Shown one piece after another: positions 14,428 to 60,121 of a stretch of DNA of 61,503 nucleotides. Position 1 is the stretch's first letter, and each line of letters starts with the position of its first letter. The position numbers and the translations under genes were made by a program. Origin of the DNA: Minisyncoccia bacterium (GTDB lineage: Bacteria; Patescibacteriota; Minisyncoccia; SW-4-49-11); NCBI GenBank assembly GCA_044356725.1, contig JBIKVS010000006.1, positions 1 to 61,503 on the forward strand, read 5' to 3'. The notes beneath the pieces are model-generated. The model searched no databases. It was not told where the DNA came from and saw nothing but the letters and a program-made list of their open reading frames with translations.

Positions 14428-14486
14428 ATAAATTGTGAGTTATGAATGGTGAATTGTAGGGGCGACCTTACACCTTAAAGTCGATT
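14428..14486. repeat. Degenerate copy of the heptamer + GTAGGGGCGACC element (locus R1 of the G+C-rich repeat family)
   Basis: tgtgagt|tatgaat|ggtgaat|tgtaggggcgacctta...gtcg. Compare with 28500-28589 and 59832-59880. Confidence 0.7.
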
Positions 14487-14518
14487 AAAAATTATTATAT
14501 ATGCTTTTACAATAAATA

Positions 14519-15322
14519 TCATTTAAATTTAATGCCAACCTCTGCTTCTAGCCAAAAGCCAAAGGTATTTATAAAGTTTATAATAACTTCTACATCATCT
14601 ACAGGATTAATTGCTAATTCTAAAGCCATCCTCATTTCATATTCTTTTTCAGGATAATATTTGCTGAAAATCTTATACGATGGATATAAATCTCTAGTAA
14701 ATACCTTTTCCTGATCTATAACTAACACAAATCCAGCTCTTAATATTCTTTTCATAACCCAACGACACCATTCCTGAATATCTTCTTTATCTTGATTATT
14801 TACAATACCTTTGATAGTATTTTCAAATACTATTTTCAAATTTTTTGGAATAAGAATATTTGCAGTTTTTATATCTGCCTTAAAATTCTCAATTTCATCT
14901 GATATATCGTCCCCATAAATACAAACACTTTGAGTTTTAATTAAAAATTTATAATTAGCTAGATTATCGCTATTCAATAATTCATCATATTTTAGAAAGG
15001 AAAATTCTACTCCCGTAGAAAATGTAAATTTTGTATCTAATGTTTTTCTTATCGGTTTTATCCAAGATTTATCTATGTCTTGAGTTATGATAGCTAAAGT
15101 ATCAATATCTGAGATACCTTCTATTGCCTCTCCCTTAGCCACACTTCCTCTGACATAAATACTCTTTAATGAATCTTTGGTATTATCTAAATATGCTTGT
15201 TTTATCTCCTCCACCGCCTCTCTCCAAGGGGATTTTATTTTATCAAGAGATGATTCATTGATAATAAAGCCATTCTCATCTGTTGTAAGTACACTGCCTA
15301 TCTCTAAAATTGGATTAGTCAT
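14519..15322 (-). CDS. Nucleotidyltransferase-fold protein, AadA/ANT(3'')-like architecture
   Basis: IYVRGSVAKGEAIEGISDIDTLAI fits the GSx10-12(D/E)xD NTase motif. Length of 267 aa and a helical C-terminal half resemble aminoglycoside adenylyltransferases. Confidence 0.5.
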   Translation of the reverse strand: MTNPILEIGSVLTTDENGFIINESSLDKIKSPWREAVEEIKQAYLDNTKDSLKSIYVRGSVAKGEAIEGISDIDTLAIITQDIDKSWIKPIRKTLDTKFTFSTGVEFSFLKYDELLNSDNLANYKFLIKTQSVCIYGDDISDEIENFKADIKTANILIPKNLKIVFENTIKGIVNNQDKEDIQEWCRWVMKRILRAGFVLVIDQEKVFTRDLYPSYKIFSKYYPEKEYEMRMALELAINPVDDVEVIINFINTFGFWLEAEVGIKFK

Positions 15323-15384
15323 ATTTTATGAATACCTATATATGCTATAATTATAACATAGTTCTATAAATAATTGATCAAACT

Positions 15385-15819
15385 ATGTCGGAAAAATTTT
15401 TGCCTTATTGTGCGGTGTGGGTGATTTTATACAATGACAAGCAAGAAATATGTCTCCTAAGAAGATTTAATACTGGTTATATGGATGGAACTTATACTGT
15501 TCCAGCTGGGCATCTTGAGGAAGGTGAAAGTTTAAAACAAGGAGCTCATCGTGAAGCTTTGGAAGAAATTGGGATTAATATTACTAAAAGTAAATTAATA
15601 CATACTGCTTATCGTGAAAGAAGGAATGACAGAATTTATATTGATGTATTCTTTGAAGTTCTAGAATACATTGGAGAAGTTTCTAATGCAGAGCCTGATA
15701 AATGTGATGAGATTATTTGGGTGAGTAAAGAAAACTTACCATCTGCAATGGCACCTAGCCTGAGATATGCTCTGGAATCTATATTCCGAGGGGAGATTTA
15801 TTCTGAATATGTAGAGTAG
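15385..15819 (+). CDS. NUDIX hydrolase
   Basis: Nudix box GHLEEGESLKQGAHREALEEIGI. Confidence 0.85.
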   Translation: MSEKFLPYCAVWVILYNDKQEICLLRRFNTGYMDGTYTVPAGHLEEGESLKQGAHREALEEIGINITKSKLIHTAYRERRNDRIYIDVFFEVLEYIGEVSNAEPDKCDEIIWVSKENLPSAMAPSLRYALESIFRGEIYSEYVE

Positions 15820-15825
15820 GGTGAA

Positions 15826-16118
15826 AAGCTAAGTCCTCCCTCACCCATCGCAAATGGGATTTGCTCCTGTGAAACCTCACGGTTTCCCAACCTTCCTCCA
15901 CGGGAAAACTACCTTTTTCCCGACCCCTTTCCCAAAGGCTAAGGCCTTTTTACGGGTACTCCCTCCACTTGCCTCCCGTAGGAATGGAAGAGGGACAAAA
16001 AAAACAACCAACTTGTCCTCCCTTGGGGGAGGTGGCACGAAGTGACGGAGGAGGACAGTCTATATCATTTACAAAGCCTTGTTTTTATGATATAAATTGA
16101 TAGTTATCTACCATCGAG
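15826..16118. repeat. G+C-rich mosaic repeat locus R2 (modules A, C, D)
   Basis: Module A 15851-15953 matches 44564-44672. Module C 15951-15997 matches 44387-44436 (inverted) and 60016-60059. Module D 16013-16080 is identical to 16556-16623. Confidence 0.85.
16068..16096 (+). promoter_or_regulatory. Promoter carried inside repeat module D (TTTACA-17 nt-TATAAA)
   Basis: tttaca 16068-16073, 17-nt spacer, tataaa 16091-16096. GAGGTG RBS at 16116-16121, then ATG at 16128. Confidence 0.5.
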
Positions 16119-16127
16119 GTGGTTTCA

Positions 16128-16364
16128 ATGTCTAAGATTATAGTCTTTGAGATCCTGTGTATTTCACCTTACAAGATTTATGTCTTTATCAAGAGTCTTA
16201 CAGATACTGTTGATGAACCTTTAAAAATTGATATTGATCCAAGTGATGGAGAATTAAGATTTTTCACAGCCCTTCAAACAATTATTGACGATACAGATAT
16301 TCCTCTAGATATACGACAACAGGCGGAAGCAATGTATGACTCTGAATTTCTCAGGCATTGCTAA
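16128..16364 (+). CDS. Small hypothetical protein (78 aa, acidic C-terminal half), cassette 1
   Basis: The ORF track entry starts at GTG 16119; ATG 16128 has better spacing to GAGGTG. Flanked by the module D promoter and a terminator module. Confidence 0.45.
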   Translation: MSKIIVFEILCISPYKIYVFIKSLTDTVDEPLKIDIDPSDGELRFFTALQTIIDDTDIPLDIRQQAEAMYDSEFLRHC

Positions 16365-16396
16365 CACCCCAATCACTCCCATCAAAAACACCCCTC

Positions 16397-16421
16397 CCAG
16401 CCCCCAAAGGCTGGTTTTTTC
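16397..16421 (+). terminator. Rho-independent terminator (module E) after small ORF 1
   Basis: ccagcc (16397-16402), loop cccaaa, ggctgg (16409-16414), then tttttt. Confidence 0.7.
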
Positions 16422-16610
16422 TTGCTTTTTTTCGTAGGGCTTTTGTCCCTCCTATTATTTCTTTTAAAGAGATATTAGGAGGGGGTAACCTTTCAGTCGC
16501 CCGAAATCCACCTCCGGCACTTCGTGCCACCCTCGCCGGCGAGGGATAGTTATTTTTGTCCTCCCTTGGGGGAGGTGGCACGAAGTGACGGAGGAGGACA
16601 GTCTATATCA

Positions 16611-16639
16611 TTTACAAAGCCTTATTTCTGTGTTATATA
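16611..16639 (+). promoter_or_regulatory. Second copy of the module D promoter (TTTACA-17 nt-TATATA)
   Basis: tttaca 16611-16616, 17-nt spacer, tatata 16634-16639. GAGGTG at 16659-16664, start GTG at 16670. Confidence 0.5.
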
Positions 16640-16669
16640 TTAAGGGTTGTCTACCTTTGAGGTGATATA

Positions 16670-16975
16670 GTGAAAATACCACCATTTGTAAAAATAGATG
16701 ATCATTTATATATAAATACTTGTGTAGTTGATTGTATTAACCTCGGATTACAAATCTTAGGGGGGGGATACATATCTAAAGATATAGGGATACTATATAG
16801 AAATCAAGTAATAATAGATGTTTTTGATAGACGTTATATATACTTTCTATTATCCCCTGAATCAGAGATCAGTAAAATAATTTTAAATTTATCATTAAGT
16901 TTAAATAAAAAATTTTTACGAGAGTTGTTTTCTACATTTTATCGTACATATATATTTACAAAAAATGATTGTTAA
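16670..16975 (+). CDS. Small hypothetical protein (101 aa, GTG start) containing a G8 tract, cassette 2
   Basis: ORF track. Same upstream promoter/RBS module and same downstream terminator module as ORF 1, but an unrelated sequence. Confidence 0.45.
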   Translation: MKIPPFVKIDDHLYINTCVVDCINLGLQILGGGYISKDIGILYRNQVIIDVFDRRYIYFLLSPESEISKIILNLSLSLNKKFLRELFSTFYRTYIFTKNDC

Positions 16976-16977
16976 AA

Positions 16978-17201
16978 ATACCCTCCCAGCCCACAAGGGC
17001 TGGGATTTTTGCTTTTTTCGTAGGGGCGACTGAAAGGTCTTCTCTACAAAGTGGAGGGATAAACCCTCCGCTACGAAATTAATAATTCGTAATTTATTTT
17101 TCCACCCCGTCCAGCAAAGCTGTCCACCCCTCAAGAGGGGAATTTTAATACAAAGTACAGGCGACTGGCAGGAGGCCCCTACAATTCATAATTTATAATT
17201 T
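16978..17201. repeat. G+C-rich mosaic repeat locus R4 (modules E, B variant, G, F)
   Basis: cgtaggggcgactgaaaggtc; ctacaaagtggagggataaaccctccgctacg (compare 60090-60121); aagtacaggcgactggcaggaggcccctacaattcataatt (compare 60065-60094 and 28608-28645). Confidence 0.8.
16984..17019 (+). terminator. Rho-independent terminator (module E) after small ORF 2
   Basis: tcccagccc-acaa-gggctggga (9-bp stem) followed by tttttgctttttt. Confidence 0.75.
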
Positions 17202-17212
17202 AAGATTAGACT

Positions 17213-17815
17213 TTATCGCCTATTCTTAAAGGCAGCAATGAGGGTGTCTTGGTCTACATATTCGAGTAAAGTCCCATTAGCTAGTCCCCTACCGAGGCTA
17301 CTGATATTACCGCTAAAATCTTTCAACTGTTGTCTTATGTATTGGGCTGTTCTATCTCCTTGTGCGGTGGGGCTGGTGGCTATTATTATGTCTTGAATAT
17401 GTTCGGTTTTAATTCTATGTAATAATTCACTAATATGCAAATCTTCTGGTTGTGAGGCTTTGAGCGGGTCTATGACTCCCCCGAGTACATGGTATCTTCC
17501 ACTATAGACTTCAGTTCGCTCAATTTGTAGTATATCCTCAGCATATTCTACAATACAGATTGTACCTGTGTCTCTGATTTCATTATTACAAATATTACAA
17601 GTTTCTCCCTCCGAGGTATTATAACAAATGCTACATTGCCTAACTAATGTCTTGATTTTGTGGATTTCCTTAGCTAATTTGGTAAGATAGGTTTGGTCTT
17701 GATTAATTAACCAATAGGCATATCTAGTAGCAGTTTTGCGACCTACTCCTGGTAGTTGCCGAATATCTTCAATTAGCTCATTGACTGAAGCTGGTGGAGT
17801 GATTTTACGCTGCAT
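17213..17815 (-). CDS. recR: Recombination protein RecR
   Basis: HhH (LPGVGRKTATR), C4 zinc finger (CSICYNTSEGETCNICNN) and Toprim region. Confidence 0.9.
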   Translation of the reverse strand: MQRKITPPASVNELIEDIRQLPGVGRKTATRYAYWLINQDQTYLTKLAKEIHKIKTLVRQCSICYNTSEGETCNICNNEIRDTGTICIVEYAEDILQIERTEVYSGRYHVLGGVIDPLKASQPEDLHISELLHRIKTEHIQDIIIATSPTAQGDRTAQYIRQQLKDFSGNISSLGRGLANGTLLEYVDQDTLIAAFKNRR

Positions 17816-17817
17816 AA

Positions 17818-19209
17818 CTATTCATTATTCTGTTGATGTCTATAATCTAAATTAACGAAAGTTGCATATTCTTTTTTGAATCCTAATCTAACTTTACCAA
17901 TTGGTCCATTTCTTTGTTTGGCGATGTGAATTTCAGCTATACCTTTGTTTTCTGTATCTGGATTTTCTCGCTCTTCACGGTAAATAAATAAAACAACATC
18001 AGCATCTTGCTCAATCGAACCAGATTCTCTCAAGTCAGACAGTCTAGGAATTTGTGGGGAACGGCTTTCTACCGAACGAGATAGCTGGGATAAGGCTATG
18101 ACTGGAACATTGAATTCTCTAGCTAATCCCTTGAGAGACCTTGATATTTCCGATACTTGTTGTACCACATTATCCGTACGAAGACTTGATTCCATAAGTT
18201 GTAAATAGTCTATTACAATTAAGCCCAGTTCATCCACTTCAGACATAATTCTTCTCAAAATTGCTCGCATTTTCATCACGCTACTTCCTGGACTATCTTC
18301 AATAAAAAGTTGAGATTTAGATAGAGAATCAAGAGCAGGTGCTAATTGTTCAAAGTCTTGTGGATGTAATTTACCAGTTTTCATTTTGAATAAATCTACC
18401 TTTGCCTCAGAACTTATTAATCTATCTACCACTTCTTCCTTGGACATTTCTAGGCTAAAGAAGACCGCTCCCTTGCCGGAGGTAATGGCTACATTTTTGA
18501 TAATTTCCAAAGCCAGAGAGGTTTTCCCCACTGAGGGACGAGCTGCTAATATAATAAGATTAGATGGCTGTAAGCCTCCAAGAGAATTATCTAGAGAATC
18601 AAATCCAGTTTTGACTCCTTTCATTCCAATACCATTATTATGGACATCGTCAATTCTATCAAATGCATCATGAAGAGCATCACTCATCCTGACATATTCT
18701 TGTTTTACTACCTTTTGAGCTACACTAAACACTGCTTGTTCAGCTTGGTCTAAAACTTGGTCAATTTCTTGAGTTTCATCAAAACCTAATTCTACTATTG
18801 AGGAGCCAACAGCAATTAATTTTCTTAGAGTTGATTTATGTTTAACAGTGTAGGCATAATGTTCAATATGGGCTGAGGATGGCACTAAGTCCACCAAATT
18901 AGCTAAATATTCCTCTCCTCCGATTTCCTCTAACTTTTCAATTAATTCTAATTTATGACTAATGGTAAGTAAATCTATCGGTTCTTTTTTATTAAATAAC
19001 TCTAATATCATCTGATAAATTAACCCATTTTTCTCATAATAAAAATCTTCTGGTGTGAGAATATCTACGATTTTTATCAAAACATTGGAGTCAATTAGAA
19101 TAGCTCCCAGAACCGACTCCTCCATATCCACTGCTTGAGGTGGAATTTTATTATGTAATACTGGTGACTTTTCTTTATATTCTTTAGTTGTTTTCTTTTC
19201 TCTTGCCAT
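17818..19209 (-). CDS. dnaB: Replicative DNA helicase DnaB
   Basis: Walker A ARPSVGKTS, IVIDYLQLM, LSQLSR, SGSIEQDADVV. Confidence 0.92.
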   Translation of the reverse strand: MAREKKTTKEYKEKSPVLHNKIPPQAVDMEESVLGAILIDSNVLIKIVDILTPEDFYYEKNGLIYQMILELFNKKEPIDLLTISHKLELIEKLEEIGGEEYLANLVDLVPSSAHIEHYAYTVKHKSTLRKLIAVGSSIVELGFDETQEIDQVLDQAEQAVFSVAQKVVKQEYVRMSDALHDAFDRIDDVHNNGIGMKGVKTGFDSLDNSLGGLQPSNLIILAARPSVGKTSLALEIIKNVAITSGKGAVFFSLEMSKEEVVDRLISSEAKVDLFKMKTGKLHPQDFEQLAPALDSLSKSQLFIEDSPGSSVMKMRAILRRIMSEVDELGLIVIDYLQLMESSLRTDNVVQQVSEISRSLKGLAREFNVPVIALSQLSRSVESRSPQIPRLSDLRESGSIEQDADVVLFIYREERENPDTENKGIAEIHIAKQRNGPIGKVRLGFKKEYATFVNLDYRHQQNNE

Positions 19210-19214
19210 ATTTT

Positions 19215-20909
19215 TTACATTTCATCTAAAGTTTGAATATTCAATAAGTCTAAACCTATTTTAATTATAGCATTAACTCTTTCTAATAAATATAATTTAT
19301 TATTTTTATTTTCTAGATTAGTCTCTTTTAGAATTGAAGTTGTATGATAATAGGAGTTTATCATCTCAGCCAATTCATACAAGTAGTGAGCTATGTAGGC
19401 AGGGTCATATTCCCTAACAGCTTGGTCTCTAATTTCTGAGAACTTAGCTAATTTTAATATTATATTTTTTTCTACTGAATTAAAATCTTGGTTTTCAAAA
19501 TACTTTGGAGTAATACCTGATTTATTTAGAATCGACTGAATACGAGCATAAGTATAAAGGATATATGGTCCAGTTTTACCTGTAAGACTAATAGATGAAT
19601 TAATATCAAAAACAATATCTTTTTTGGTAGAAATAGCTAGTATATAGTACATATAGCTTGCTTTGGCTATAATTTGTACTCTTTTCTCTATTTCCTCATG
19701 CTCTAATTGAGTGTCTTTGAAGTAAATCTCTCTAACTTTATCTTCAATTTCTTGGATTAAAGGGTCAGCATTGACTATAGTACCCTTTCTAGAGCTCATT
19801 TTACCTTCTGGGAGACGAAATAGTCCATAGCCAATGTGATAGAGACCATCTTGCTTTATACCTAATTGCTGTGAGATAGCAAAAATTTGCTGAAATTGTA
19901 AATTTTGCTCATAAGCTGTAATATAAATCAGTTTGTCAGCATTATGACATTTGGATTTCTCAGATAATCTGTATTTTAATAAATATAAATCTTGAGTTAT
20001 ATACAGAGCCGTACCTTGAGACCTTAGAAGAATTTTGTTAGGTAAATTATATTTTTCTAGATCAGCATAAATATAATTATCTTCTGGATGTTGTTTGAAT
20101 ATCCCTCTTTCTAGACCATCTAATACAATTTCTTTCCCTTTTTTATAAATATCTGATTCATAAATATGCTCATCAAAGGATGTACCTAATTTTTGATAGG
20201 TTTGTTGTTGCCCTTCTATCACCCAATTCCTAAGTTTTAGCCAAATATCATACCAGTACTTATCGCCATTTTCCCATTTTGATAATATATCTTGAGCTTG
20301 ATCTATTAACTTTGGATTATCTTGTGATTTATGTTCGAATTCAATGTATAAATTACCAGCATAATGATCTGATTTTATATCTGGAGTTTCATCTTTATGA
20401 AACATTTCATAGATTAACATCATCTTAGCAACTGCAATACCTCTATCATTAATCACCTCAGTTTTAATCACCTGATGTCCTTGAGATTTTAAAATTTTAT
20501 ATAAAGCTTCTCCAATGGCAATATTACGAATATGACCTAAATGTAGAGGTTTATTAGTATTGGGAGAGGCAAATTCTAGGGCTATTTTTTTTCTTTGTAC
20601 TTCAGATAATTTGGCTGGAGTATCTAGTAAGGCGTGGCCCACTAAATAGGAGGTTTTGAGTCTCAAATTCATATAAGCCCCTACTATGTTGATTTCTTCT
20701 ATATATTCTATATTCTCTAATTCTAACTTTAGCTGATTTGCAATTTCTTGAGGTGATTTTTTAAAGATTTTTGCAAAGACAAAACAAGGTATAGCTAAAT
20801 CTCCAAATTGTGAATTAGGATATTCAAATTCAATTACAAATTGATTATCTATATCCAGTATTCTGCGAATTTGTATTACTAAATCATCTTTTATCTTATA
20901 CAATCCCAT
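19215..20909 (-). CDS. argS: Arginyl-tRNA synthetase
   Basis: HIGH-type motif SPNTNKPLHLGHIRN, a KMSSRKG-like loop (GKMSSRKG) and a C-terminal anticodon-binding helical domain. Confidence 0.88.
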   Translation of the reverse strand: MGLYKIKDDLVIQIRRILDIDNQFVIEFEYPNSQFGDLAIPCFVFAKIFKKSPQEIANQLKLELENIEYIEEINIVGAYMNLRLKTSYLVGHALLDTPAKLSEVQRKKIALEFASPNTNKPLHLGHIRNIAIGEALYKILKSQGHQVIKTEVINDRGIAVAKMMLIYEMFHKDETPDIKSDHYAGNLYIEFEHKSQDNPKLIDQAQDILSKWENGDKYWYDIWLKLRNWVIEGQQQTYQKLGTSFDEHIYESDIYKKGKEIVLDGLERGIFKQHPEDNYIYADLEKYNLPNKILLRSQGTALYITQDLYLLKYRLSEKSKCHNADKLIYITAYEQNLQFQQIFAISQQLGIKQDGLYHIGYGLFRLPEGKMSSRKGTIVNADPLIQEIEDKVREIYFKDTQLEHEEIEKRVQIIAKASYMYYILAISTKKDIVFDINSSISLTGKTGPYILYTYARIQSILNKSGITPKYFENQDFNSVEKNIILKLAKFSEIRDQAVREYDPAYIAHYLYELAEMINSYYHTTSILKETNLENKNNKLYLLERVNAIIKIGLDLLNIQTLDEM

Positions 20910-20912
20910 ACT

Positions 20913-28497: not shown

Positions 28498-28646
28498 AAT
28501 GATGAGTTATAAGTGGTGAATTATGAATTTGGAATGTTAAATGATGAATTGGGAATTGAGAGTTTCGTAGGGGCGACCTTTCAGTAGCCTGAAACAGTTC
28601 ATATAAATACGGGCGACTGAAAGGTCGCCCCTACAATTCATAATTA
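28498..28646. repeat. G+C-rich repeat locus R7: about ten 7-nt tandem units, then a 19-bp perfect inverted repeat, flanked by AATTATGAATT/AATTCATAATT
   Basis: Heptamers 28500-28569 (tgatgag|ttataag|tggtgaa|ttatgaa|tttggaa|...). gtaggggcgacctttcagt (28567-28585) is the exact reverse complement of actgaaaggtcgcccctac (28616-28634). Confidence 0.9.
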
Positions 28647-35909: not shown

Positions 35910-37724
35910 TTACTTATCAAAATTAATGGATTTGCCTTTATGCATATCATTTTTTTTATTTTCTTTTTCTACCATTAAATTCGATTTAACTTCTAATAAA
36001 AGCTCGTCAACTAACGAAGATATACTAAGATTTTCTTCTTGATTAGATTGATTCAAGTCTTTAAGTAATTTTTCTTTAACTAGATACTCCGATTCGCCAT
36101 AAGATGAATTAGACCTACTAAATACTTCTTTTAGTTTTTTAGCCATAATTGGATTAGAGTACTCTGTCTCACTGTTAGAATCTAATTGTTGTGTTGGTTC
36201 TAATGCAACTTCTTCTGTTTGTTCGTTTACTTGTGATTGATTATTAATAGGCTGAGAGGACAAAGATACTTTAGCATTATCTCTAGATACAGTCTGGTCT
36301 TCTTCAGGTTTTTGATAAGCTAGAGTATCAGGCTTGGTTGATATACTATGCGATTTTGATGTATCATTAGATTTAGAATAAAATTTAGATTTACTATTAT
36401 TGTCTGATGATGCCTTTACTGGTTTAGCTTGAGAGTCTTTTTCATCCTTATTTTTAATATGGTCGCCTATCAATGTAGATTTCTTATTACCATAAGTTTG
36501 TCTTGAGAACTCAATGATTTTATCACGATTAGAAATTAATTCAGGCTCTGGATCAGGCAAAGTATCAGCACTAAATGGCTGACTTGTTACTCCATCTATC
36601 ATAAGTTTTAGATAAATTTTCCATTTTGGTAAATTTACTAAATCTTCAATAGTAAGCACAGGGGTGAATTCTCTTTCCATAAACTCAGCATCAGCCGCTC
36701 CAATCCTAAAGACAATGGTTGTGCCAACATTCCCAAATACAGCCCCACGGACAACCTCAGATAACTGCTCTATATATTGATGAGCTAGAATTAAACTCAA
36801 TTTATATTTACGAGCCTCAGACAAAATCTCAGCAAAGGAATCGGTAGAGAAGTTCTGAAACTCATCAATATAAGCATAGAAGTCCTTCCTTTCATTTTCT
36901 GGAATATCTACCCTACTCATAGCTGCCAACTGCATCTTGGTAATCATCATAGCTCCCAATAATTGAGCTCCTCCTTCACCTACGGCTCCTTTAGACAAAT
37001 TCATAATCAGAATTTTTTTCTGATCCATAATTTCTCTTAGGTTAAATGAAGATTTAGGCTGTCCAATAATATTACGAATCAATGGAGATGAAGTGAATTG
37101 CCCCACTTTATTCTGGATAGGAGAAATAGCTTCAACGAGTAATTTATCAGTATACCCATCATATTCATTTAGCCAGAATTGTTTTAGTACTGGATCTTGC
37201 ATTTTGTATACAATATTTGCTCTAAAGTTTTTATCCACTAGAATTCTCATTATATCCAATAATGTGCTACTTTCATTCTCAAGCAAAGTTAAAATGGCAT
37301 TCCGTAATATATATTCTAATCTTGGCCCCCAAGAATCAGCCCAGATTTTTTTGAACACACCCACCAACCCATCAGATACAATATGTCTCTGATTTTCTGG
37401 AACATCTCCAAGTACATTAAAGGCAATTGGATACTCTAAATCTTGTGGATTAAAATATACTACATCTTTAATTCTATCCTCTGGGATATAATCTAATAAA
37501 GCATCAGCTACATCCCCATGAGGATCAACAAAAGCTAAACCTGATCCATTTCTAATATCCGACACTGCCATATTGAGAAGCAGAGATGTTTTCCCCATTC
37601 CTGTCTTTCCAATAATATGCATATGCCTTCCCCTATCATCTCTTTTAATACCAAAAAGCTTACCCTGACCATGGAAATTAGTTTTGGCTATTATCGTTAT
37701 GTCTTGATTATTATTAGAATTCAT
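35910..37724 (-). CDS. TraD/VirD4-type (type IV coupling-protein-like) P-loop ATPase with long disordered C-terminal tail
   Basis: Walker A GKTGMGKTS, Walker B FYAYIDEFQNF, LILAHQY. The last roughly 200 aa are S/N/Q/E/K-rich low complexity. Confidence 0.7.
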   Translation of the reverse strand: MNSNNNQDITIIAKTNFHGQGKLFGIKRDDRGRHMHIIGKTGMGKTSLLLNMAVSDIRNGSGLAFVDPHGDVADALLDYIPEDRIKDVVYFNPQDLEYPIAFNVLGDVPENQRHIVSDGLVGVFKKIWADSWGPRLEYILRNAILTLLENESSTLLDIMRILVDKNFRANIVYKMQDPVLKQFWLNEYDGYTDKLLVEAISPIQNKVGQFTSSPLIRNIIGQPKSSFNLREIMDQKKILIMNLSKGAVGEGGAQLLGAMMITKMQLAAMSRVDIPENERKDFYAYIDEFQNFSTDSFAEILSEARKYKLSLILAHQYIEQLSEVVRGAVFGNVGTTIVFRIGAADAEFMEREFTPVLTIEDLVNLPKWKIYLKLMIDGVTSQPFSADTLPDPEPELISNRDKIIEFSRQTYGNKKSTLIGDHIKNKDEKDSQAKPVKASSDNNSKSKFYSKSNDTSKSHSISTKPDTLAYQKPEEDQTVSRDNAKVSLSSQPINNQSQVNEQTEEVALEPTQQLDSNSETEYSNPIMAKKLKEVFSRSNSSYGESEYLVKEKLLKDLNQSNQEENLSISSLVDELLLEVKSNLMVEKENKKNDMHKGKSINFDK

Positions 37725-44350: not shown

Positions 44351-44697
44351 TATTAATTGTGAATGGTGAATTGGGAGTTGTGCTTCTGTCTCCATTCCAT
44401 CCCTACGGGAGGCAGGCGGAGGGAGTACCCGTAGGGGGAGGGTGGATAATGCTTAAAATACTGAAATAAACTCTTGTTTGTATTAATATTACAATCTATC
44501 CACCACCGGCACTCCGTGCCACCTCCTCCAAAGGAGGACAAAATACTCCACCCCCGACCGTCACAAATGGGATTTGCTCCTGTAAAATCTCACAGGTTTG
44601 GCCAACCTTCTGCCACGGGAAAACTACCGTTTTCCCGACCCCTTTCCCAAAGGCTAAAGCCCTTTTTTCAGGTACTTCCTCATAAGGGTGACAAAAA
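44351..44697. repeat. G+C-rich mosaic repeat locus R5 (heptamers, module C inverted, module D inverted with AT-rich spacer, module A)
   Basis: ttaattg|tgaatgg|tgaattg heptamers. 44387-44436 is the reverse complement of 15951-15997. 44441-44540 is the reverse complement of 59886-59996. 44564-44672 matches 15851-15953. Confidence 0.85.
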
Positions 44698-52842: not shown

Positions 52843-52845
52843 ATT

Positions 52846-53574: not shown

Positions 53575-54674
53575 ATATGTATATTAGGTTTTTTACCTAT
53601 ATCTAATGGGATTAACAAATCTTTAAGAGAATCTAAATCTTCCAAGACCATACCGGTTCCTCTTACCACTACAGTCAGAGGATCCGAAGCAATCAGAGTA
53701 GGAACTCTAGTGGTATTAGTGATAAGAATATCTAAACCTTTTAATAAAGCTCCTCCTCCAGCCAGAATTATACCTCTTTCCATAATATCTCCAATTAGCT
53801 CTGGAGGGGTCTCTTCGATGGAAGTTTTGACCGCACTAGCAATTTGCATAATAGAATTAGCCATTGCTTTTCTAATGTCTGTATCGTTCACCATTACTTC
53901 TTTTGGCAATCCAGAAATAATATCTCTACCTTTCACTCCCATCTCAATAGGCTCACTCAAAGCATAAGCTGAGCCAATATTAATTTTAATATTCTCCGCT
54001 GTTCTCTCACCAATAGCAAGTTTATAATGTGTACGTATATATCTTATAATATCCGTGTTTAATTTATCACCAGCCACTCTAAGACTTTTAGAAATAACTA
54101 CTCCGCCCAAAGACATTACTGCAATTTCGGTAGTTCCCCCACCAATATCTACAATAATACTACCAGTAGCTTCTTGAATAGGTAATCTAGCCCCAATAGC
54201 TGCCGCAATAGGCTCTTCAATTAAATATACCTCTCTCACACCGGCATTACGAGTTGCATCATATACAGCTCTCTTTTCAACCTCTGTCACTCCAGAAGGA
54301 ATACCAACCACTACCCTAGTCTTCCAATGATGAAAGAATCCTCGCTGAGTCACTTTATTTACAAAATATTTTAGCATTTGCTCTGTAACTTCAAAGTCTG
54401 AGACAACTCCATTTACCAAAGGTCTTGTAGCTACAATATGTGCAGGAGTTCTACCAACCATAGTCTTAGCATCCTGACCAATAGCAAGAACCTGACCACT
54501 TTTTTTATTAACAGCCACTACAGACGGCTCATTAATTACAATACCTCTGTTTTTTACATAAACTAAAGTATTAGCTGTTCCAAGATCAATCCCAATATCC
54601 TGCCCAAATGAACCTAATAAATTAGATAATAGTTTTCTCTTAGATTTTACTTGACTCCTGCTTTTCATATACAT
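53571..54674 (-). CDS. mreB: Rod shape-determining protein MreB
   Basis: IGIDLGTANT, DIGGGTTEIAV, GIILAGGGALLKGLD. Confidence 0.93.
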   Translation of the reverse strand: MYMKSRSQVKSKRKLLSNLLGSFGQDIGIDLGTANTLVYVKNRGIVINEPSVVAVNKKSGQVLAIGQDAKTMVGRTPAHIVATRPLVNGVVSDFEVTEQMLKYFVNKVTQRGFFHHWKTRVVVGIPSGVTEVEKRAVYDATRNAGVREVYLIEEPIAAAIGARLPIQEATGSIIVDIGGGTTEIAVMSLGGVVISKSLRVAGDKLNTDIIRYIRTHYKLAIGERTAENIKINIGSAYALSEPIEMGVKGRDIISGLPKEVMVNDTDIRKAMANSIMQIASAVKTSIEETPPELIGDIMERGIILAGGGALLKGLDILITNTTRVPTLIASDPLTVVVRGTGMVLEDLDSLKDLLIPLDIGKKPNIHI

Positions 54675-54723
54675 TCTATTTTATATGAAATTCAGAGTTA
54701 TGTAAACATGTTTTAAAAATAAA

Positions 54724-55149
54724 CTAAAATTTTCCTGTACTACCAAAGCCTCCAGAGCCTCTCATTCCATCACTGACTTCATCTACAAATTCAATCTCAC
54801 AATGCTCTACTTTTTGGATCAAAAGTTGTATGAATTTAGAACCCTTTTCTAAAATAACTTCTCTCTCAGATAAGTTTATTAGAATTATTTTCATTTCTCC
54901 AGTATACCCACTATCAATCACACCTCCCAAACTTTTAAGTCCTTTTTTACTAGCGATACTACTTTTATCCCAAAATAAAGCTGCATATCCTACTGGCAAA
55001 TCGATAGCCAAACCTGTGGGAATAATGACTTTTTCTTGGGGTTGTATAGTAATTTCCTTTAGAGTATATAAGTCCATCCCAGCATCAGTTGGGTGGCCAT
55101 AAGTTGGTAATTTTGCCTCTGGGTGAAGTTTTTTGAATCCTATTTTCAT
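54724..55149 (-). CDS. dut: dUTP pyrophosphatase
   Basis: GVIDSGYTGE, RGSGGFGSTG C-terminal motif. Confidence 0.9.
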   Translation of the reverse strand: MKIGFKKLHPEAKLPTYGHPTDAGMDLYTLKEITIQPQEKVIIPTGLAIDLPVGYAALFWDKSSIASKKGLKSLGGVIDSGYTGEMKIILINLSEREVILEKGSKFIQLLIQKVEHCEIEFVDEVSDGMRGSGGFGSTGKF

Positions 55150-55201
55150 ATAATTTATTATATCATACTATGTTATAATAAATATACTTAAATTTAAATT
55201 T

Positions 55202-55642
55202 ATGCCAAATATATTTTTAGCTAAAACCGAACCCTCAACATTTTCTATAGATGATTTTGAAAAAGAACAAATCACTCTTTGGGATGGGGTACATAATTAT
55301 CAAGCAATCAATATAATCAAAACTTGGCAAGTTGGAGATTATGTCTTAATTTATCATTCTGTTAAAGAGAAGTGTTTAGTAGGAGTGTCTCAAGTAATAG
55401 AAGAGCCTTATCATAATTTAGCTGACCCTAGATTTAGTTGGGCAGCTAAACTTAAATTAATATATAAATTTAGTCAGGATGAAAAGATAAACTTAGCTAC
55501 AATCAAGCAAAGTAATTTATTCGATAACTTTCTTTTAGTAACCAACAGCCGTCTTTCAGTAATGCCTTGCCCAGATAATTTTGTAAATTGGATACAAGAG
55601 CAGATTCCTAAATTAAAAGATATATTCATTAGTCAAAGCTAG
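55202..55642 (+). CDS. EVE (PUA-like) domain protein
   Basis: FLAKTEPSTFSIDDF...WDGVHNYQA...GDYVLIYHS matches the EVE/DUF55 pattern. Confidence 0.7.
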   Translation: MPNIFLAKTEPSTFSIDDFEKEQITLWDGVHNYQAINIIKTWQVGDYVLIYHSVKEKCLVGVSQVIEEPYHNLADPRFSWAAKLKLIYKFSQDEKINLATIKQSNLFDNFLLVTNSRLSVMPCPDNFVNWIQEQIPKLKDIFISQS

Positions 55643-55656
55643 ATAAATACTAAAGT

Positions 55657-56400
55657 ATGACTAATTCAGACCTAAATATTATATATGAATTAAGTATATA
55701 TTCAGAAGATTTTAATAAAAAGTTAACATCACTTTTATCTAATAATTCAATCCATAAAATCTCAATAACTAATAAAAAATATAATACTACTATTGAATAT
55801 ATTATACAAAAAATCCAAAATATAAATTCTAAATTAGAAATTATCCCCTATTATTCACTCAAATATCATCAGCAATCTTCATTGCAAGATACGGCTCTTA
55901 CCTTTATTCAACAATTAAAACTATATCAAGATTTAGGTGTTAAAGAAGTTTTATTAATAAGTGGTATTCCTAAACCTAAATATGATACTAGACAAGTCTT
56001 AGAAATTTTAAGTAAAAATTATCAATCAGAGCAATTACCCCAATTAGCCGTGGCTTATAATCCATTTCTAACTGGACTAGATTTAGAGATAGAAAATAAT
56101 GTTATTGAAAATAAAATTAAGTCTGGAATCATATCTAGTATTTATCTACAAATAGGAATAGACTTAAACATAATCAGAGAATCTGTTCAATATTTAAGAC
56201 AATTACAACCTAATCTAAATATTTATCTTAGCTTAATGAACCCCACACCTACTCGTCTTGCCCAATTTCAATATAGACCTTGGAAAGGAGTATATCTACC
56301 ACAAAAATATCTACAGTCTGCAAGTAGTGCTATCAAAATTAATGAATCCATTTATAATTTAGCTCAAGAACTTAATGTGAGTATTATACAAGGAGATTAA
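55657..56400 (+). CDS. Hypothetical protein, 247 aa
   Basis: ORF track. Only vague resemblance to TIM-barrel MTHFR-like proteins (VLLISGIPKP, LAVAYNPF); not assignable. Confidence 0.45.
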   Translation: MTNSDLNIIYELSIYSEDFNKKLTSLLSNNSIHKISITNKKYNTTIEYIIQKIQNINSKLEIIPYYSLKYHQQSSLQDTALTFIQQLKLYQDLGVKEVLLISGIPKPKYDTRQVLEILSKNYQSEQLPQLAVAYNPFLTGLDLEIENNVIENKIKSGIISSIYLQIGIDLNIIRESVQYLRQLQPNLNIYLSLMNPTPTRLAQFQYRPWKGVYLPQKYLQSASSAIKINESIYNLAQELNVSIIQGD

Positions 56401-56413
56401 CCCATCTAAGCTT

Positions 56414-57034
56414 ATGCTACAAGATTTATTATCTGAGAAAAGTTGGGAAAAAGCTCTATATCAGGAGTTGCAAAAAGAATATATATACAATTTATATCAA
56501 TTTTTAATATCAGAATATACTAAGTCTACTATTTATCCAAGTTGGGATAATATATTCCTGGCTCTAAATCTATGTCCTTTGCATAAAGTTAAGGTTGTAA
56601 TTATAGGACAGGACCCTTATCATAATCCCAATCAAGCCACTGGACTAGCCTTCAGTGTGCCTTCCAAGTCTAAAATTCCCCCATCACTTAATAATATATT
56701 CAAAGAAATTAAGAGTGACTTAGGAATAAACCCTAATCAAAATGGTGATTTAGCTCGTTGGGCTAGACAAGGAGTATTATTATTAAATACAACCTTGACT
56801 GTCAGGGAGAATCAACCAGCATCACATCAAAACCAAGGCTGGGAAGTGTTAACTGACAGCATAATAAAATTAATCTCAGAGGAAAAATCTCATATAGTAT
56901 TTATTCTATGGGGAAAACAAGCTCAAACCAAAAAAAGTTTAATAGACTCCAAGAAACATCTCATCTTAGAATCTAATCACCCCTCACCATTATCTGCTTA
57001 TAGAGGTTTTTTTGGCAGTAGGCATTTTAGTTAG
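56414..57034 (+). CDS. ung: Uracil-DNA glycosylase, family 1
   Basis: VVIIGQDPYH water-activating loop, HPSPLSA leucine loop. Confidence 0.92.
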   Translation: MLQDLLSEKSWEKALYQELQKEYIYNLYQFLISEYTKSTIYPSWDNIFLALNLCPLHKVKVVIIGQDPYHNPNQATGLAFSVPSKSKIPPSLNNIFKEIKSDLGINPNQNGDLARWARQGVLLLNTTLTVRENQPASHQNQGWEVLTDSIIKLISEEKSHIVFILWGKQAQTKKSLIDSKKHLILESNHPSPLSAYRGFFGSRHFS

Positions 57035-57099
57035 GCAAATTTGTATTTGGCAAAAAATAACATACAAGCTATTGATTGGAAGTAAACATTTGTCATTAG

Positions 57100-57128
57100 T
57101 TGACAAATTTTATGTGTTGTGTTATAAA
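57100..57128 (+). promoter_or_regulatory. Near-consensus promoter with extended -10 (TTGACA-17 nt incl. TGT-TATAAA) overlapped by a TTTGTCA-TTAGT-TGACAAA dyad
   Basis: ttgaca 57100-57105, tgt 57120-57122, tataaa 57123-57128. Dyad at 57088-57108. Confidence 0.55.
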
Positions 57129-57134
57129 TAGTTT

Positions 57135-57283
57135 TAGATGAATACTGGTGTTCGTCTGTGTCCCCACGGGATACATTCCTAGTTTCGCTACAGCTTGTAG
57201 TAGATACAAGCAAGCTGGGAAATTATCCCACTTTCACCAGCATAAACTCCTCTGCGGCGTGTGCAGTAGGAGTTTTTCTTATT
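57135..57283 (+). ncRNA. Candidate small RNA (about 140 nt) of unknown family, between its own promoter and a strong terminator
   Basis: No plausible CDS on the + strand. Closing helix ctggtg...caccag, internal hairpins gcttgta-gtaga-tacaagc and tggga-aatta-tccca. Terminator aaactcct-ctgc...gcag-t-aggagttt plus T-run at 57244-57283. Confidence 0.45.
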
Positions 57284-57918
57284 TATTCTAGTGATAAATT
57301 TTTAATTTCTTGAAGAATAATCTCTATTCCCTCTTCTACAGTTAAGTTATCTGTATTAATCTCAATAGCATCTTCTGCCTTACGCAATGGAGAATGTTCT
57401 CGTTCAATATCATGTCGATCCCTTTGAGCAATTGATTCTAAAACATGCTCATAATCCGCTTCTAATCCATCTTTTTGCATCTGAGCATAGCGTCTTTTGG
57501 CTCGAACCTCTAATGAAGCTGTAAAATAAAATTTATAATCAGCTTCAGGAAAGACCACTGTCCCTATGTCCCTACCCTCTACGACTATATTTTTATCTTT
57601 AGCATAATTTCTTTGGATTTCAACTATTTCCTCACGGATAGAAGGTATACTAGCAACTTCAGCCACATTATCAGAAACAGTTTGCTCACGCAGTACATTA
57701 TAATCAATATTATTATAATCTAATTCTTGAGCTAATTTAAATAAAACATCCGAATCATTCAGATCCAGATGTTGTTGTAGTGCATTAAATGTAATCCAGC
57801 GATATAAAGTTCCTGAGTTGAGATGATAATATCCTAGTCTTTGTGCTAATAACTCAGCTGTTGTACTTTTACCTGTTCCACCTGGACCATCTATTGTAAT
57901 AACCATATAATTTTTCAC
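57283..57918 (-). CDS. cmk: Cytidylate kinase
   Basis: ITIDGPGGTGKST P-loop, YRWIT, EGRDIGTVVFP. Confidence 0.9.
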   Translation of the reverse strand: MKNYMVITIDGPGGTGKSTTAELLAQRLGYYHLNSGTLYRWITFNALQQHLDLNDSDVLFKLAQELDYNNIDYNVLREQTVSDNVAEVASIPSIREEIVEIQRNYAKDKNIVVEGRDIGTVVFPEADYKFYFTASLEVRAKRRYAQMQKDGLEADYEHVLESIAQRDRHDIEREHSPLRKAEDAIEINTDNLTVEEGIEIILQEIKNLSLE

Positions 57919-57987
57919 TTAATTTATACTAAACCTAAAAATTATAATATCATAAATTCTATAATTTGTAAAAATATAAAGTTAAAT

Positions 57988-59781
57988 CTAATGTTTCAAA
58001 ACCTCTAAATAAACCTCCTTAGGAATATGAATACGAGCAGTATCACGCATTCTCTTTTTACCTTCTTTCTGTTTTTTTAACAATTTATCCTTACGAGTTC
58101 TATCTCCACCATATAATTTCGCTGTCACATCTTTTCTAAAAGCAGAAAGTGTTTCTCTCGCCACAATTGTACCACCTATAGTTGCCTGTAGAGCCACTGC
58201 ATACTGTTGTCTTGGCAGAGATTGCTTCAATTTATGCACAATTCGCTTACCTTCATCATGAGCTTCATCTTTATATACAATATGGGACAAAGCCTCCTGA
58301 GTCTCGCCTGCCACCATTATATCTAATTTGACTAGATTAGCCTCTTGAGGAGGTAGTGGATAATAGTTAACCGAGGCATATCCTGAAGTAATACTTTTAA
58401 GTACATCATAAAAATCCACAATAACCTTAGCTAGTGGTATATGATACTCGACAATAGCTCTATCCTCTCCAATATATTTAGTATTAATAAATTGTCCTCG
58501 TCTTTTTTGTAATAAATCCATTACTGAGCCAATATAATCTTTAGGTGTCATTATCTCTAACCTCACATAAGGCTCTAGGATTCTAGCTAACTTGGTATTG
58601 TCAGGAAAATCAGTTGCGGAATAAATAGTATAAGTGTCCCCATTAGTCTGCTCCACTATATAGGCAACAGACGGAGTGCTGATAATCAAATCCAGATCAT
58701 ATTCTCGCCTTAATCTCTCGGTAATAATATCTAAATGCAACATTCCTAAAAATCCACATCTGAACCCCTTACCTAGAGCTTCTTTAGACTCAGGTTCAAA
58801 CACAAGGGAGGAATCAGATAGCTTGAGCTTATTCAGAGCATCTCTAAGTATAGGATATTCCTCGGTACTCGCAACAAAAATACTAGCGTAAACAACCGGT
58901 ACTGGCTCCATATACTCAGCTAATGGAGCTAAATCTTGACTAGCTGGAAATTTTATAATAGTATCTCCCACACGGACATTTTCTACATTTTTTAGCCCAG
59001 TGGCAATATATCCTATCATACCAGCAGAGAGAGTATCTAATTTGGTCATCTGAGGAGTGAACACACCTAATTCTAAAACTTGAGCTTCTTGTTTTTTGGC
59101 AAGCATCTTGATACTATCCGCTGTTGAAATATTCCCATCTACAACTCTAATATGAGCAATAACACCTTTATAAGAATCAAAGGCGGAATCAAAGATTAAA
59201 GCCCTAAAATTATCTCCCTCGATTGAGTTAGTAGTTGGAGCTGGGACTTCCGCAATCACTCTCTCTAATAAAGCTGGAACTCCCTGTCCAGTTTTACCAG
59301 AAATCTCCAGAATTTCAGACTCTTCCACTCCTAGCAGTTCACAAATCTCTTGCTTGACTTCAGTCACTCTAGCATGAGGTAAATCTACTTTATTGACAGC
59401 AGGTATAATGACCAAATCCTGTTCAATAGCTAGATAAACATTAGCAATAGTCTGAGCCTGTATACCTTGAGTAGCATCTACTAGAAGAATAGCCCCCTCT
59501 ACAGCCGCAAGACTTCTCGAGACCTCATAGCTAAAGTCCACATGCCCAGGAGTATCGATTAAATTCAAAATATATTCTTGGTTTTGATAATTATATTTCA
59601 CCCTAACTGGTTGCATCTTAATAGTAATCCCTCGCTCTCGCTCTAATTCCATAGAGTCAAGCAATTGCTCTTTCATCTTCCGCTTCTCTACAGTTTGAGT
59701 CAATTCCAAAATACGGTCAGACAAAGTAGACTTACCATGATCAATGTGAGCAATAATACTAAAGTTTCGAATATTTTGCAT
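57988..59781 (-). CDS. lepA: Elongation factor 4 (LepA)
   Basis: IRNFSIIAHIDHGKST, DTPGHVDF, NKVD, and the LepA-specific C-terminal domain. Confidence 0.95.
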   Translation of the reverse strand: MQNIRNFSIIAHIDHGKSTLSDRILELTQTVEKRKMKEQLLDSMELERERGITIKMQPVRVKYNYQNQEYILNLIDTPGHVDFSYEVSRSLAAVEGAILLVDATQGIQAQTIANVYLAIEQDLVIIPAVNKVDLPHARVTEVKQEICELLGVEESEILEISGKTGQGVPALLERVIAEVPAPTTNSIEGDNFRALIFDSAFDSYKGVIAHIRVVDGNISTADSIKMLAKKQEAQVLELGVFTPQMTKLDTLSAGMIGYIATGLKNVENVRVGDTIIKFPASQDLAPLAEYMEPVPVVYASIFVASTEEYPILRDALNKLKLSDSSLVFEPESKEALGKGFRCGFLGMLHLDIITERLRREYDLDLIISTPSVAYIVEQTNGDTYTIYSATDFPDNTKLARILEPYVRLEIMTPKDYIGSVMDLLQKRRGQFINTKYIGEDRAIVEYHIPLAKVIVDFYDVLKSITSGYASVNYYPLPPQEANLVKLDIMVAGETQEALSHIVYKDEAHDEGKRIVHKLKQSLPRQQYAVALQATIGGTIVARETLSAFRKDVTAKLYGGDRTRKDKLLKKQKEGKKRMRDTARIHIPKEVYLEVLKH

Positions 59782-59831
59782 ATAAGCTATATTATAGACG
59801 AAATTAGGATATTTTACAAATTAATTATAAA

Positions 59832-60121
59832 TGATGTATTATGAGTTGTGAATTTAGTAGGGTCGACCTTTCAGTCGCCTGTTTTTGTCCTCCTTTCTAC
59901 CTACGGCAGATAAATGGAGGAGGTGGCACGCAGTGCCGGTGGTGGATATTAAGTTTAATATTATTACAAGTAAGAGTTTATTTTAGTATTTTAAAGTCTG
60001 TCCTCCCTCCCCCTTCGGGTACTCCCTCCAACTACCTACGGCAGTTAAAAAGGGAGACAATATAAGTACAGGCGACTTGCAGGTTGTCCCTACAAACTGG
60101 AGGGATAAACTCCTCCGCTAC
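59832..60121. repeat. G+C-rich mosaic repeat locus R6 (heptamers, B arm, module D with 19-nt insertion, AT-rich spacer, modules C, F, G)
   Basis: gtagggtcgacctttcagtcgcc 59858-59880. Module D 59886-59945 with inserted ctacctacggcagataaat (59897-59915). 60016-60059 matches module C. 60065-60121 matches 17153-17183 and 17043-17075. Confidence 0.85.

Follow-up and report, generated by a model that had tools for sequence, protein, structure and literature searches.

Repetitive extragenic palindromes (REPs) of the GTAG-tagged superfamily are 20-40-bp palindromes with a 5-13-bp stem, a short loop and an unpaired GTAG at one end, and they are extragenic and present in many copies (Di Nocera et al. 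2013). REPs that form inverted doublets with a spacer, doublets that are over-represented and predicted to fold as hairpins in single-stranded DNA (ssDNA), are known as REPINs (Bertels & Rainey 2011, PMC3116915), and a gene for a REP-associated tyrosine transposase (RAYT) flanked by its REP is the arrangement that defines a REPtron (PMC3733652; PMC3116915). Work on REPIN-RAYT systems has dealt almost exclusively with Proteobacteria. GTAG-type REPs and RAYTs have also been reported from Nostoc and Cyanothece (PMC3733652, PMC3116915). Here we examine a 61,503-nt stretch of DNA from a Minisyncoccia bacterium (contig JBIKVS010000006.1), hereafter the window, in which an original prediction had described seven G+C-rich, modular intergenic repeat loci in an AT-rich genome. 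We consider it probable that these loci are clusters of REP/REPIN-type extragenic palindromes, arranged in the manner of bacterial interspersed mosaic elements (BIMEs), with one palindrome, module B, as their core unit and a RAYT as the linked enzyme. The mosaics belong to the known REP/REPIN-RAYT class, which they fit in every feature accessible here, and are not a new kind of element, and a case from freshwater Paceibacteria, members of the candidate phyla radiation (CPR), widens the phylogenetic range of that class.

The seven loci (14428-14486, 15826-16118, 16372-16665, 16978-17201, 28498-28646, 44351-44697 and 59832-60121, here numbered 1 to 7) are all present where they had been placed, except that the last had been drawn too short: it reaches ~60211, the added part comprising a GTAG hairpin (60129-60152) and a further hairpin (60177-60211). 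The G+C content of the window is ~32% throughout, and its ordinary intergenic spacers have 8-37% G+C, the majority less than 30%. When the whole window was compared by BLAST with 51 loci from other genomes (contig stretches from genomes or metagenomes, cited below by L-numbers, with proteins cited by P-numbers), the matches were six of the seven repeat loci and a conserved lepA coding stretch; locus 1 is too short for the threshold of that comparison and matches other genomes in a separate one. Because no other non-coding sequence is marked, we take the seven loci to be the complete list of dispersed-repeat loci in the window. Their relatedness is visible as a 109-nt direct repeat (16013-16121 and 16556-16664, 90% identical), a 74-nt repeat within the unit called module A (15878/44593, 88%) and an 89-nt inverted repeat (44403-44491 and 59956-60044, 81%). 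Over the 1755 nt of the seven loci, GGAGG/CCTCC occurs 34 times against 6.1 expected, which bears out the predicted richness in this string, GTAG/CTAC 27 times against 11.4 (2.4-fold) and CGTAGG/CCTACG nine times against 0.56 (16-fold), and none of these counts was reached in any of 1000 resamplings.

Module B (GTAGGGGCGACCTTTCAGTCGCC; consensus TTTY-GTAG-GGGCGAC-CTTTCA-GTCGCCY-GTA) consists of an unpaired 5' GTAG tag, a 7-bp stem (GGGCGAC/GTCGCCC), a 6-nt loop (CTTTCA) and a YGTA foot. A G+C palindrome of 23-28 nt with such a tag is also the form of the REPs in proteobacterial REP/REPIN-RAYT systems such as E. coli REP/TnpA-REP and Pseudomonas fluorescens GI-GIII (PMC3733652, PMC3116915, PMC3479197), and the sequence of B is unrelated to families already described. 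The window holds three exact matches, four matches with at most three mismatches against 0.00 expected, and eight with at most five; at the last threshold the window and stretches of other metagenome-assembled genomes (MAGs), ~390 kb together, contain 86 copies. GTAG heads nearly all 86, with the variants ATAG, GAGG and GTGG, and the flanks TTTY on the 5' side of GTAG and YGTA on the 3' side of the stem are kept. As in proteobacterial REPINs, B is extragenic, at tens of copies per Mb, and it lies in no credible gene: the eight apparent cases inside an open reading frame (ORF) concern ORFs of 70-154 aa that were not checked individually, two of them in the window within or overlapping loci 3 and 7. 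B-like variants in frame within RAYT genes, described below, form a separate category. The spacers that bear B comprise 30 between tandem, 13 between convergent and nine between divergent genes, the corresponding numbers for all spacers being 210, 51 and 54.

The arrangement of the copies is strongly biased. Among B doublets, defined as copies at most 400 nt apart, 15 are head-to-head with GTAG outside, none is tail-to-tail and one is tandem. Four doublets have 22-23-nt spacers of related sequence, and the remaining spacers, of 91-371 nt, hold other modules. The minimal form is the 68-nt REPIN of locus 5 (28567-28634; B, a 22-nt spacer and inverted B), whose predicted ssDNA fold is one long hairpin of -27.9 kcal/mol (z = -8.55) and which also occurs in L005, L021 and L050. 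A long REPIN-like form is found at locus 7, where a forward B (59857-59882) and an inverted B (60066-60093) enclose a composite unit, X (59885-60060); its predicted ssDNA fold closes via both B arms (z = -3.27), and this locus shows 99% conservation in strains L001 and L002. Head-to-head doublets folding as one hairpin, and the decay of B into degenerate singlets alongside well-conserved doublets, are further features shared with proteobacterial REPINs, so that the resemblance to REP and BIME elements that had been proposed for these loci is upheld in a specific form, a GTAG-tagged REP in inverted doublets set in a mosaic with other modules. The host differs, being a member of the Paceibacteria with a small genome of ~32% G+C, and its transposition is here a prediction.

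The link between B and a transposase comes from relatives of the window organism. A phmmer search with E. coli RayT (the sequence of PDB 4ER8) gave a weak match to an ORF of L042 that adjoins a copy of B, and L042, L052, L053, L054, L055 and L081 each carry a 167-171-aa HUH/Tyr transposase ORF with a B or B-like copy on both sides, which is the REPtron arrangement, a transposase gene flanked by the same palindrome, known from Proteobacteria. The flanking copies are in direct orientation at the five intact loci, whereas in L042 the downstream copy is degenerate and inverted and the ORF is cut by an in-frame TAA. Read through this codon, the L042 ORF scores 30.8 bits against Pfam Y1_Tnp, for which the cutoff is 23, and reaches E = 1.6e-19 with NCBIfam REP_Tyr_transpos; for the intact homologues REP_Tyr_transpos is the best NCBIfam family (67-78 bits), the IS200 model scoring 24-31 bits. 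The HUH motif (PNHIH) and a YIDxNP tyrosine motif are invariant in these proteins. An AlphaFold model (pLDDT 83) has E. coli TnpA-REP bound to a REP hairpin (4ER8) as its closest PDB structure, followed by the IS608 and ISDra2 TnpA proteins, and members of the cluster carry the automatic IMG name 'REP element-mobilizing transposase RayT'. Identity to E. coli RayT is only ~18-25%. The gene lies between ligA and murG in L042, L052 and L053, a region not found in the window, and in another neighbourhood in L054 and L081. The last of these contigs comes from the same metagenome sample as L001, a strain 97% identical to the window, and is not assignable to that organism.

A trait that sets this system apart from the proteobacterial ones compared here is that a variant of the palindrome lies within the transposase gene itself. 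The RAYT genes of L052 (2314-2335), L053, L054, L055 and L081 contain an inverted B variant in frame, GGCGACATAAGGTCGCCCCTAC, which encodes GDIRSPL. A metagenome profile scan with the Paceibacteria RAYT returned more than 484 distant homologues at 29-41% identity and no further members of the CPR clade; among the best 80 loci, which were examined, distant homologues (L087, L099, L101, L113 and others) often have two in-frame REP copies, head-to-head, encoding for example VGANCVRP and GRTQFAPT, and these bracket the part of the ORF with the HUH motif. The copies lie at different positions in different clades, a pattern that suggests several independent in-frame insertions, and they could be a self-regulatory or self-mobilising device. 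Hairpins headed by GTAGGG[GC]CG were present in 39 of the same 80 loci, where we estimate ~5 such occurrences by chance, and their stems differ in compensatory ways (GGCGAAC/GTTCGCC, GGCGGAT/ATCCGCC, GGCGGTC/GGCCGCC). From this we take the head GTAGGGGCG as a signature of this RAYT subfamily, with B as its Paceibacteria version.

These results suggest a mechanism modelled on the E. coli TnpA-REP structure and on IS200/IS605 (PMC3479197). A HUH/Tyr (Y1) transposase of the RAYT type, putatively single-copy and with B on both sides, would act in this Paceibacteria lineage, recognising the GTAG tag and hairpin on ssDNA; by cutting and rejoining ssDNA it would mobilise B, and new REPIN copies would slowly arise in other intergenic spacers. 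The genome of the window probably has, or had, such an enzyme. The nested modules (X, A, G and two further GTAG hairpins) would travel as passengers or spread by the same route, and the outcome would be BIME-like mosaics whose content changes fast between species. Any effects of stable hairpins on transcription at gene ends in a genome of 32% G+C would be a secondary consequence, and a role of the loci as terminators or insulators is possible as a side effect only. Among the roles originally suggested for the repeats, that of miniature mobile elements thus agrees best with the B doublets and the B-flanked RAYT of related genomes, mobility itself being deduced from this arrangement.

The family is dispersed between genes across a clade. 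A scan for B in a genome collection with one genome per species returned 47 stretches, nearly all from ~13 Paceibacteria, Parcubacteria or Minisyncoccia MAGs, with a maximum of 13 exact copies in one MAG, and B was absent from viral contigs (IMG/VR). The other genomes also carry all the dispersed modules that had been named in the window, so the family is not peculiar to it. Synteny with the window was seen for two loci, L012 (81.5% identity) and L035 (76-88%), and comparison of the three species shows turnover of module content at one orthologous spacer, that between tRNA-Met and recR. The L035 spacer is 410 nt long and consists entirely of repeats, and that of L012 combines other modules with a different small ORF. 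The window spacer measures 2.8 kb; its four genes and four repeat loci are framed by heptamers and B at 14428-14484 and by inverted B and heptamers at 17157-17201, an outer inverted pair around a 2.7-kb block of accessory genes. The site orthologous to locus 1 in L035 has heptamers and an intact B; since it is orthologous in window and L035, the tRNA-proximal copy is old, whereas the recR-proximal B is present in the window only.

CPR (Patescibacteria) genomes are small and streamlined, and persistent repeat families are not usually expected there. The repeats mark spacers where accessory genes get exchanged. In the window, the accessory block (14519-16975) comprises genes for a NUDIX hydrolase and for a protein with a nucleotidyltransferase domain, together with two ORFs of 81 and 101 aa without a Pfam domain match, and it is absent from the orthologous spacer of L035; upstream of each of the two small ORFs lies a shared, duplicated 109-nt segment made up of module D, a promoter-like part and a part like a ribosome-binding site (RBS). 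The repeats also account for assembly breaks at certain spacers in these organisms. Short contigs from metagenomes frequently terminate at the repeats. L060 and L062-L064, contigs of the window organism, stop at most ~90 nt from the stop codon of recR, where repeat locus 4 has its edge, and because several metagenome contigs end there we conclude that the repeats break short-read assemblies. The pairing of a 167-aa enzyme with a 23-nt hairpin further offers a compact natural system for studies of recognition between Y1 transposases and REPs.

Several observations weigh against assigning the loci to a RAYT-driven REPIN system. No RAYT, integrase, recombinase or other transposase was found among the scanned ORFs of the window, so that the transposase gene, and its flanking by the cognate REP, are features of related Paceibacteria contigs and not of the window. 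The bit scores of the intact RAYT homologues fall just below the 80-bit NCBIfam equivalog cutoff. CALMJI01, the MAG richest in B, is the one with the interrupted RAYT gene (L042, 3428-3871, minus strand), and the truncated product of this gene recurs in several assemblies (P0005, and P0017 on eight contigs); many B copies beside an interrupted gene resembles a REPIN population that outlives its RAYT. Among the genomes compared we found no pair of filled and empty sites with exact boundaries, and the lepA, recR, adk and rplJ neighbourhoods of near-identical strains (L001-L004, L058-L074) showed no polymorphism at the repeat loci, all being identical, which makes this close-strain comparison uninformative on recent movement. 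The copies of B were ascertained with an exact-match pattern, which inflates their apparent sequence conservation. Modules D, C, A and G have no GTAG tag, and adjacency is their sole tie to RAYT. Finally, the heptamer runs are without a counterpart in classical REP or BIME elements and remain unexplained.

These heptamers (NNTGAAT) adjoin the outer GTAG ends of B, another respect in which the system differs from proteobacterial ones, and 22% of B copies have motifs of this type no more than 21 nt away, compared with 7% in background. The statement that most loci begin with them holds at 14428, 28498, 44351 and 59832; the runs at 17183 and 28635 are inverted, and loci 2 and 3 have none. In the window, promoter-like TTCACA-17-TATAAT matches at the heptamers point towards lepA, the tRNA operon and rplJ, and a role as outward-facing promoters was considered. 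Across all loci, B copies with flanking heptamers point towards gene starts about as often as towards gene ends (6 versus 7), and for this reason the idea was dropped.

The modules that accompany B include two other GTAG-headed hairpins. Type 2 (GTAGCGGAGGGTTTATCCCTCCA) occurs in the window at 17052-17074 and 60098-60121, both on the minus strand, and adjoins B in many other genomes; type 3 (GTAGAGTCAGCGCCCTGCCGACAT, written GTAGAGTCRGCG...GCCGACA) occurs at 60129-60152 on the minus strand and adjoins B in several. Modules D and C, whose cores have five and three matches in the window against 0.00 and 0.10 expected, are the two ends of the composite X, a unit of ~160-175 nt in which an AT-rich spacer separates them. 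From its 5' end X reads TTGTCCTCC-loop-GGAGGAGG, then TGGCAC-GNA-GTGCC and GGAGGTGGAT, followed by a variable AT-rich stretch, ATCCACCCTCC, CCC-TWCG-GGG and ACTCCCTCC-loop-GGGAGACAA, with small hairpins such as CTACCTACGGCAG nested in both end loops. Besides the forward copy of locus 7, the window has an inverted copy at 44384-44542, and at least ten loci of other genomes contain X in either orientation, often bracketed by inverted B arms, as in the window at 59857-60093 and in L024, L030 and L033. Module A, ~118 nt with three short hairpins, has copies at 15834-15951 and 44547-44666 (both plus strand, 81-88% identity) and partial copies in 12 loci of other genomes. Module G (CCACCCCGTCCAGCAAAGCTGTCCACCCCTCAAGAGGGGAATTTTAA) comprises two hairpins, and its core CCCCTCTTGAGGGG is the second most frequent repeat k-mer in the set of loci, with 26 occurrences. 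Module E, which had been listed as a shared module, proved to be two ordinary intrinsic terminators, at 16385-16420 after the 81-aa ORF and at 16984-17009 after the 101-aa ORF, with zero copies in other genomes; likewise, the distal (3') 60 nt of the 109-nt repeat are a local duplication of the promoter- and RBS-like segment before the two small ORFs and not a dispersed module.

It is conceivable, and in our judgement deserves some weight as an unlikely alternative, that X, A and G with their GGAGG/CCTCC stems are a distinct, undescribed class of miniature elements nested in REPIN spacers, or that they form a structured nucleic-acid element that serves some function independently. Exact copies of the D core GGAGGTGGCACGNAGTGCCGG occur in six IMG/VR contigs of 50-62% G+C (L075-L080) with the same flanking architecture (CCTCCC-loop-GGGAGG-TGGCAC-GNA-GTGCC-GGAGGG), and D-like units are tandem in at least L075, where they are ~90 nt apart, and L080. 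Part of the L075 array, 261 nt long, has 23 matches, without annotation, on the NZ_AP023416.1 replicon of Vescimonas fastidiosa (Oscillospiraceae). D-type hairpin pairs are hence not confined to CPR bacteria.

In layout the mosaics resemble the BIMEs of E. coli, which likewise combine REPs of alternating orientation with a limited set of short motifs reordered at different intergenic sites; D, C, A, G and the two GTAG hairpins, lying between or beside B arms, occupy the place of the non-REP motifs of BIMEs. There is no sequence relationship, the modules between the REPs are long and rich in hairpins (~160-175 nt for X, ~118 nt for A) with small hairpins nested in loops, and we found no evidence here for binding of gyrase, IHF or Pol I. 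In Nostocales, according to what Elhai et al. reportedly described in 2008, tandem heptamer repeats (short tandemly repeated repetitive sequences, STRR) adjoin small dispersed mobile palindromes, and elements are nested in one another. The heptamers that adjoin palindromes and the nested small elements of the window are similar, in another phylum and with different heptamer and palindrome sequences. The heptamers had also raised the idea of a cyanobacterial origin of the window, which we rejected on a gene content of CPR type and on relatives that are Paceibacteria MAGs. The BOX elements of pneumococci (boxA, boxB, boxC), compared by layout only, are modular intergenic repeats with strong potential for secondary structure; unlike the window modules, which vary in order and orientation, they have a fixed A-B(n)-C order, and they have neither GTAG tag nor RAYT.

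An alternative view of the mosaics is that they are cis-regulatory elements of the host, bidirectional terminators, stabilisers of mRNA 3' ends or insulators, selected because stable G+C hairpins between genes are needed in an AT-rich CPR genome, so that they would be repeated for their function and not through mobility. The hairpins are very stable, the loci are intergenic, with five of the seven between co-directional and one between convergent genes, and convergent spacers make up 13 of the 52 that bear B against 51 of 315 in general; terminator-like scores were obtained for module E and for some of the G and D-like hairpins, and E. coli REPs are known to have regulatory side effects of this kind (PMC3733652). 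The modules, however, stand in either orientation to the flanking genes (A runs with the genes at 15834 and is antisense to them at 44547), locus 5 lies in a divergent promoter region, each locus has only 0-2 terminator-like sites outside module E, and most intergenic spacers of the window do without these repeats. Moreover, sequence as well as structure is kept across species whose genes are only 76-82% identical, and B also flanks a transposase gene. We therefore hold a primarily regulatory role to be unlikely. Similar structural features could point to small structured RNA genes or riboregulators, such as mimics of Shine-Dalgarno or anti-Shine-Dalgarno sequences that titrate ribosomes or 16S 3' ends, given the excess of GGAGG/CCTCC, folds more stable than those of shuffled sequence and a sub-threshold match of module D to Whalefall-1 (18 bits against a gathering score of 37). 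In Rfam scans at the gathering threshold on the window and ten loci, and at permissive settings on the repeat block and eight loci, tRNAs alone passed, and Whalefall-1 and some miRNA models were at chance level. Module A yielded no supported consensus structure, no compensatory pair and no covariation, the strand of the modules relative to neighbouring genes is not consistent, the dispersed modules have no promoter or terminator of their own, and copies degenerate like decaying repeats. We regard this option, which had been among those first proposed, as very unlikely.

Two further explanations invoke mobility of other kinds. X and A might be conventional miniature inverted-repeat transposable elements (MITEs) derived from a DDE-type insertion sequence, unrelated to RAYT and merely gathering in the same permissive spacers. 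The inverted-repeat ends of X, its length with a variable AT-rich centre, its presence in both orientations in other genomes and the finding that heptamers can adjoin X directly without B would all fit. But the duplication of the target site that goes with the terminal repeats of a MITE was visible at none of nine inspected X copies, nor was one seen at B doublets; no DDE transposase was found in the window (other loci were not searched for one), and X lies frequently between inverted B arms. We regard a MITE origin as improbable. Lastly, the block at 14.4-17.2 kb might be an integron-like or other site-specific gene-cassette array with the repeat loci as recombination sites, since three co-directional small genes (NUDIX and the 81-aa and 101-aa ORFs) are each followed by a 225-295-nt repeat locus and the block is missing from the L035 spacer. 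An integron would have an integrase and uniform attC sites; no integrase or recombinase was found among the scanned ORFs of the window, the repeat loci vary in content and length, the same modules occur at four loci without cassette genes, and every one of the small ORFs comes with a separate promoter-like and RBS-like segment and a separate terminator. We give this explanation hardly any credence. The REP/REPIN-RAYT reading accounts for a class and not for a described family: no Rfam family matches, and our literature search turned up no account of REP-type repeats, REPINs or RAYT-REP systems from CPR bacteria, its sole find, a RAYT mentioned for an archaeon, being unrelated. The sequence family is therefore undescribed as far as checked, which preserves the first half of the earlier statement that these sequences match no known family, while an unknown kind of element, its other implication, is not supported for a class so well known.

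Viewed one by one, the loci illustrate how the modules are recombined. Locus 1 (14428-14484, plus strand), upstream of the tRNA-Met gene, is a heptamer run (14428-14455) followed by a 3'-degenerate B from 14456. Locus 2 carries the first copy of module A and continues with module C (15951-16000, plus; TACGGGTACTCCCTCC...CCTCCCGTAGG...GGGACAAAA), which is 86% identical to the inverted 44384-44433, and with a short self-closing form of module D (16013-16058, plus; GTCCTCCC-TTGG-GGGAGG-TGGCAC-GAA-GTGAC-GGAGGAGGAC), of which 16556-16601 is an identical copy. In locus 3 the first of the two module E terminators (plus strand) precedes a core (16434-16548) made of a CGTAGGG stub and a hairpin, CCCTCCTA...TAGGAGGG; the core includes a degenerate B (16479-16501, plus) and an inverted D-like unit (16505-16548, minus) with a CCCTCGCCGGCGAGGG hairpin. 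Past its own terminator, locus 4 has, at 17020-17074, a degenerate B (17025-17047, minus) that bears GTAG-type ends on both sides, and after it the type 2 hairpin; module G follows (17099-17146, plus), orthologous to the recR-proximal module of L035, and the locus closes with B (17157-17182, minus) and an inverted heptamer run (17183-17201). Locus 5 opens with ~9 heptamers (28498-28566), and its minimal REPIN is followed by a short inverted heptamer stretch (28635-28646). Locus 6 (44351-44666) consists of heptamers (~44351-44383), the inverted X, read as C, AT-rich spacer and D, and the second copy of module A. Locus 7 starts with heptamers (59832-59856), carries a small hairpin nested in the first D loop of its X, and after the second B continues with the type 2 and type 3 hairpins and the hairpin that ends it.

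The remaining genes of the window are CPR-type housekeeping genes (recR, dnaB, argS, adk, map, dnaK, genes for penicillin-binding proteins, secDF, mreBC, rplJ/L and lepA) with four tRNAs, and proteins identical to those of the window are encoded on freshwater metagenome contigs, from Lake Mendota among others, and in the NCBI MAG GCA_032117105.1. Among these genes, 35910-37724 (minus strand) encodes a 604-aa protein with weak matches to coupling-protein domains of the TrwB/TraG type. A candidate small structured RNA gene lies at 57093-57275 (plus strand), with a near-consensus promoter (TTGACA-17-TATAAA), an intrinsic terminator and a G+C-rich fold of ~110 nt closed by ACUGGUG/CACCAGC (z = -5.3); it had no Rfam match even at E <= 1. 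It is downstream of a uracil-DNA glycosylase gene (56414-57034), which is also present in L002 and L004 and missing from L001 and L003, strains otherwise 97-99% identical. An ORF on the minus strand runs off the end of the window (60221-61503); its counterpart in strain L001 is a 449-aa product that combines an N-terminal methylation motif like that of type IV pilins (a weak Pfam match) with an FGE-sulfatase domain, faint in L001 and clear on a fragment in L002. The fusion of a pilin-like N-terminus to an FGE-sulfatase domain is typical of CPR bacteria.

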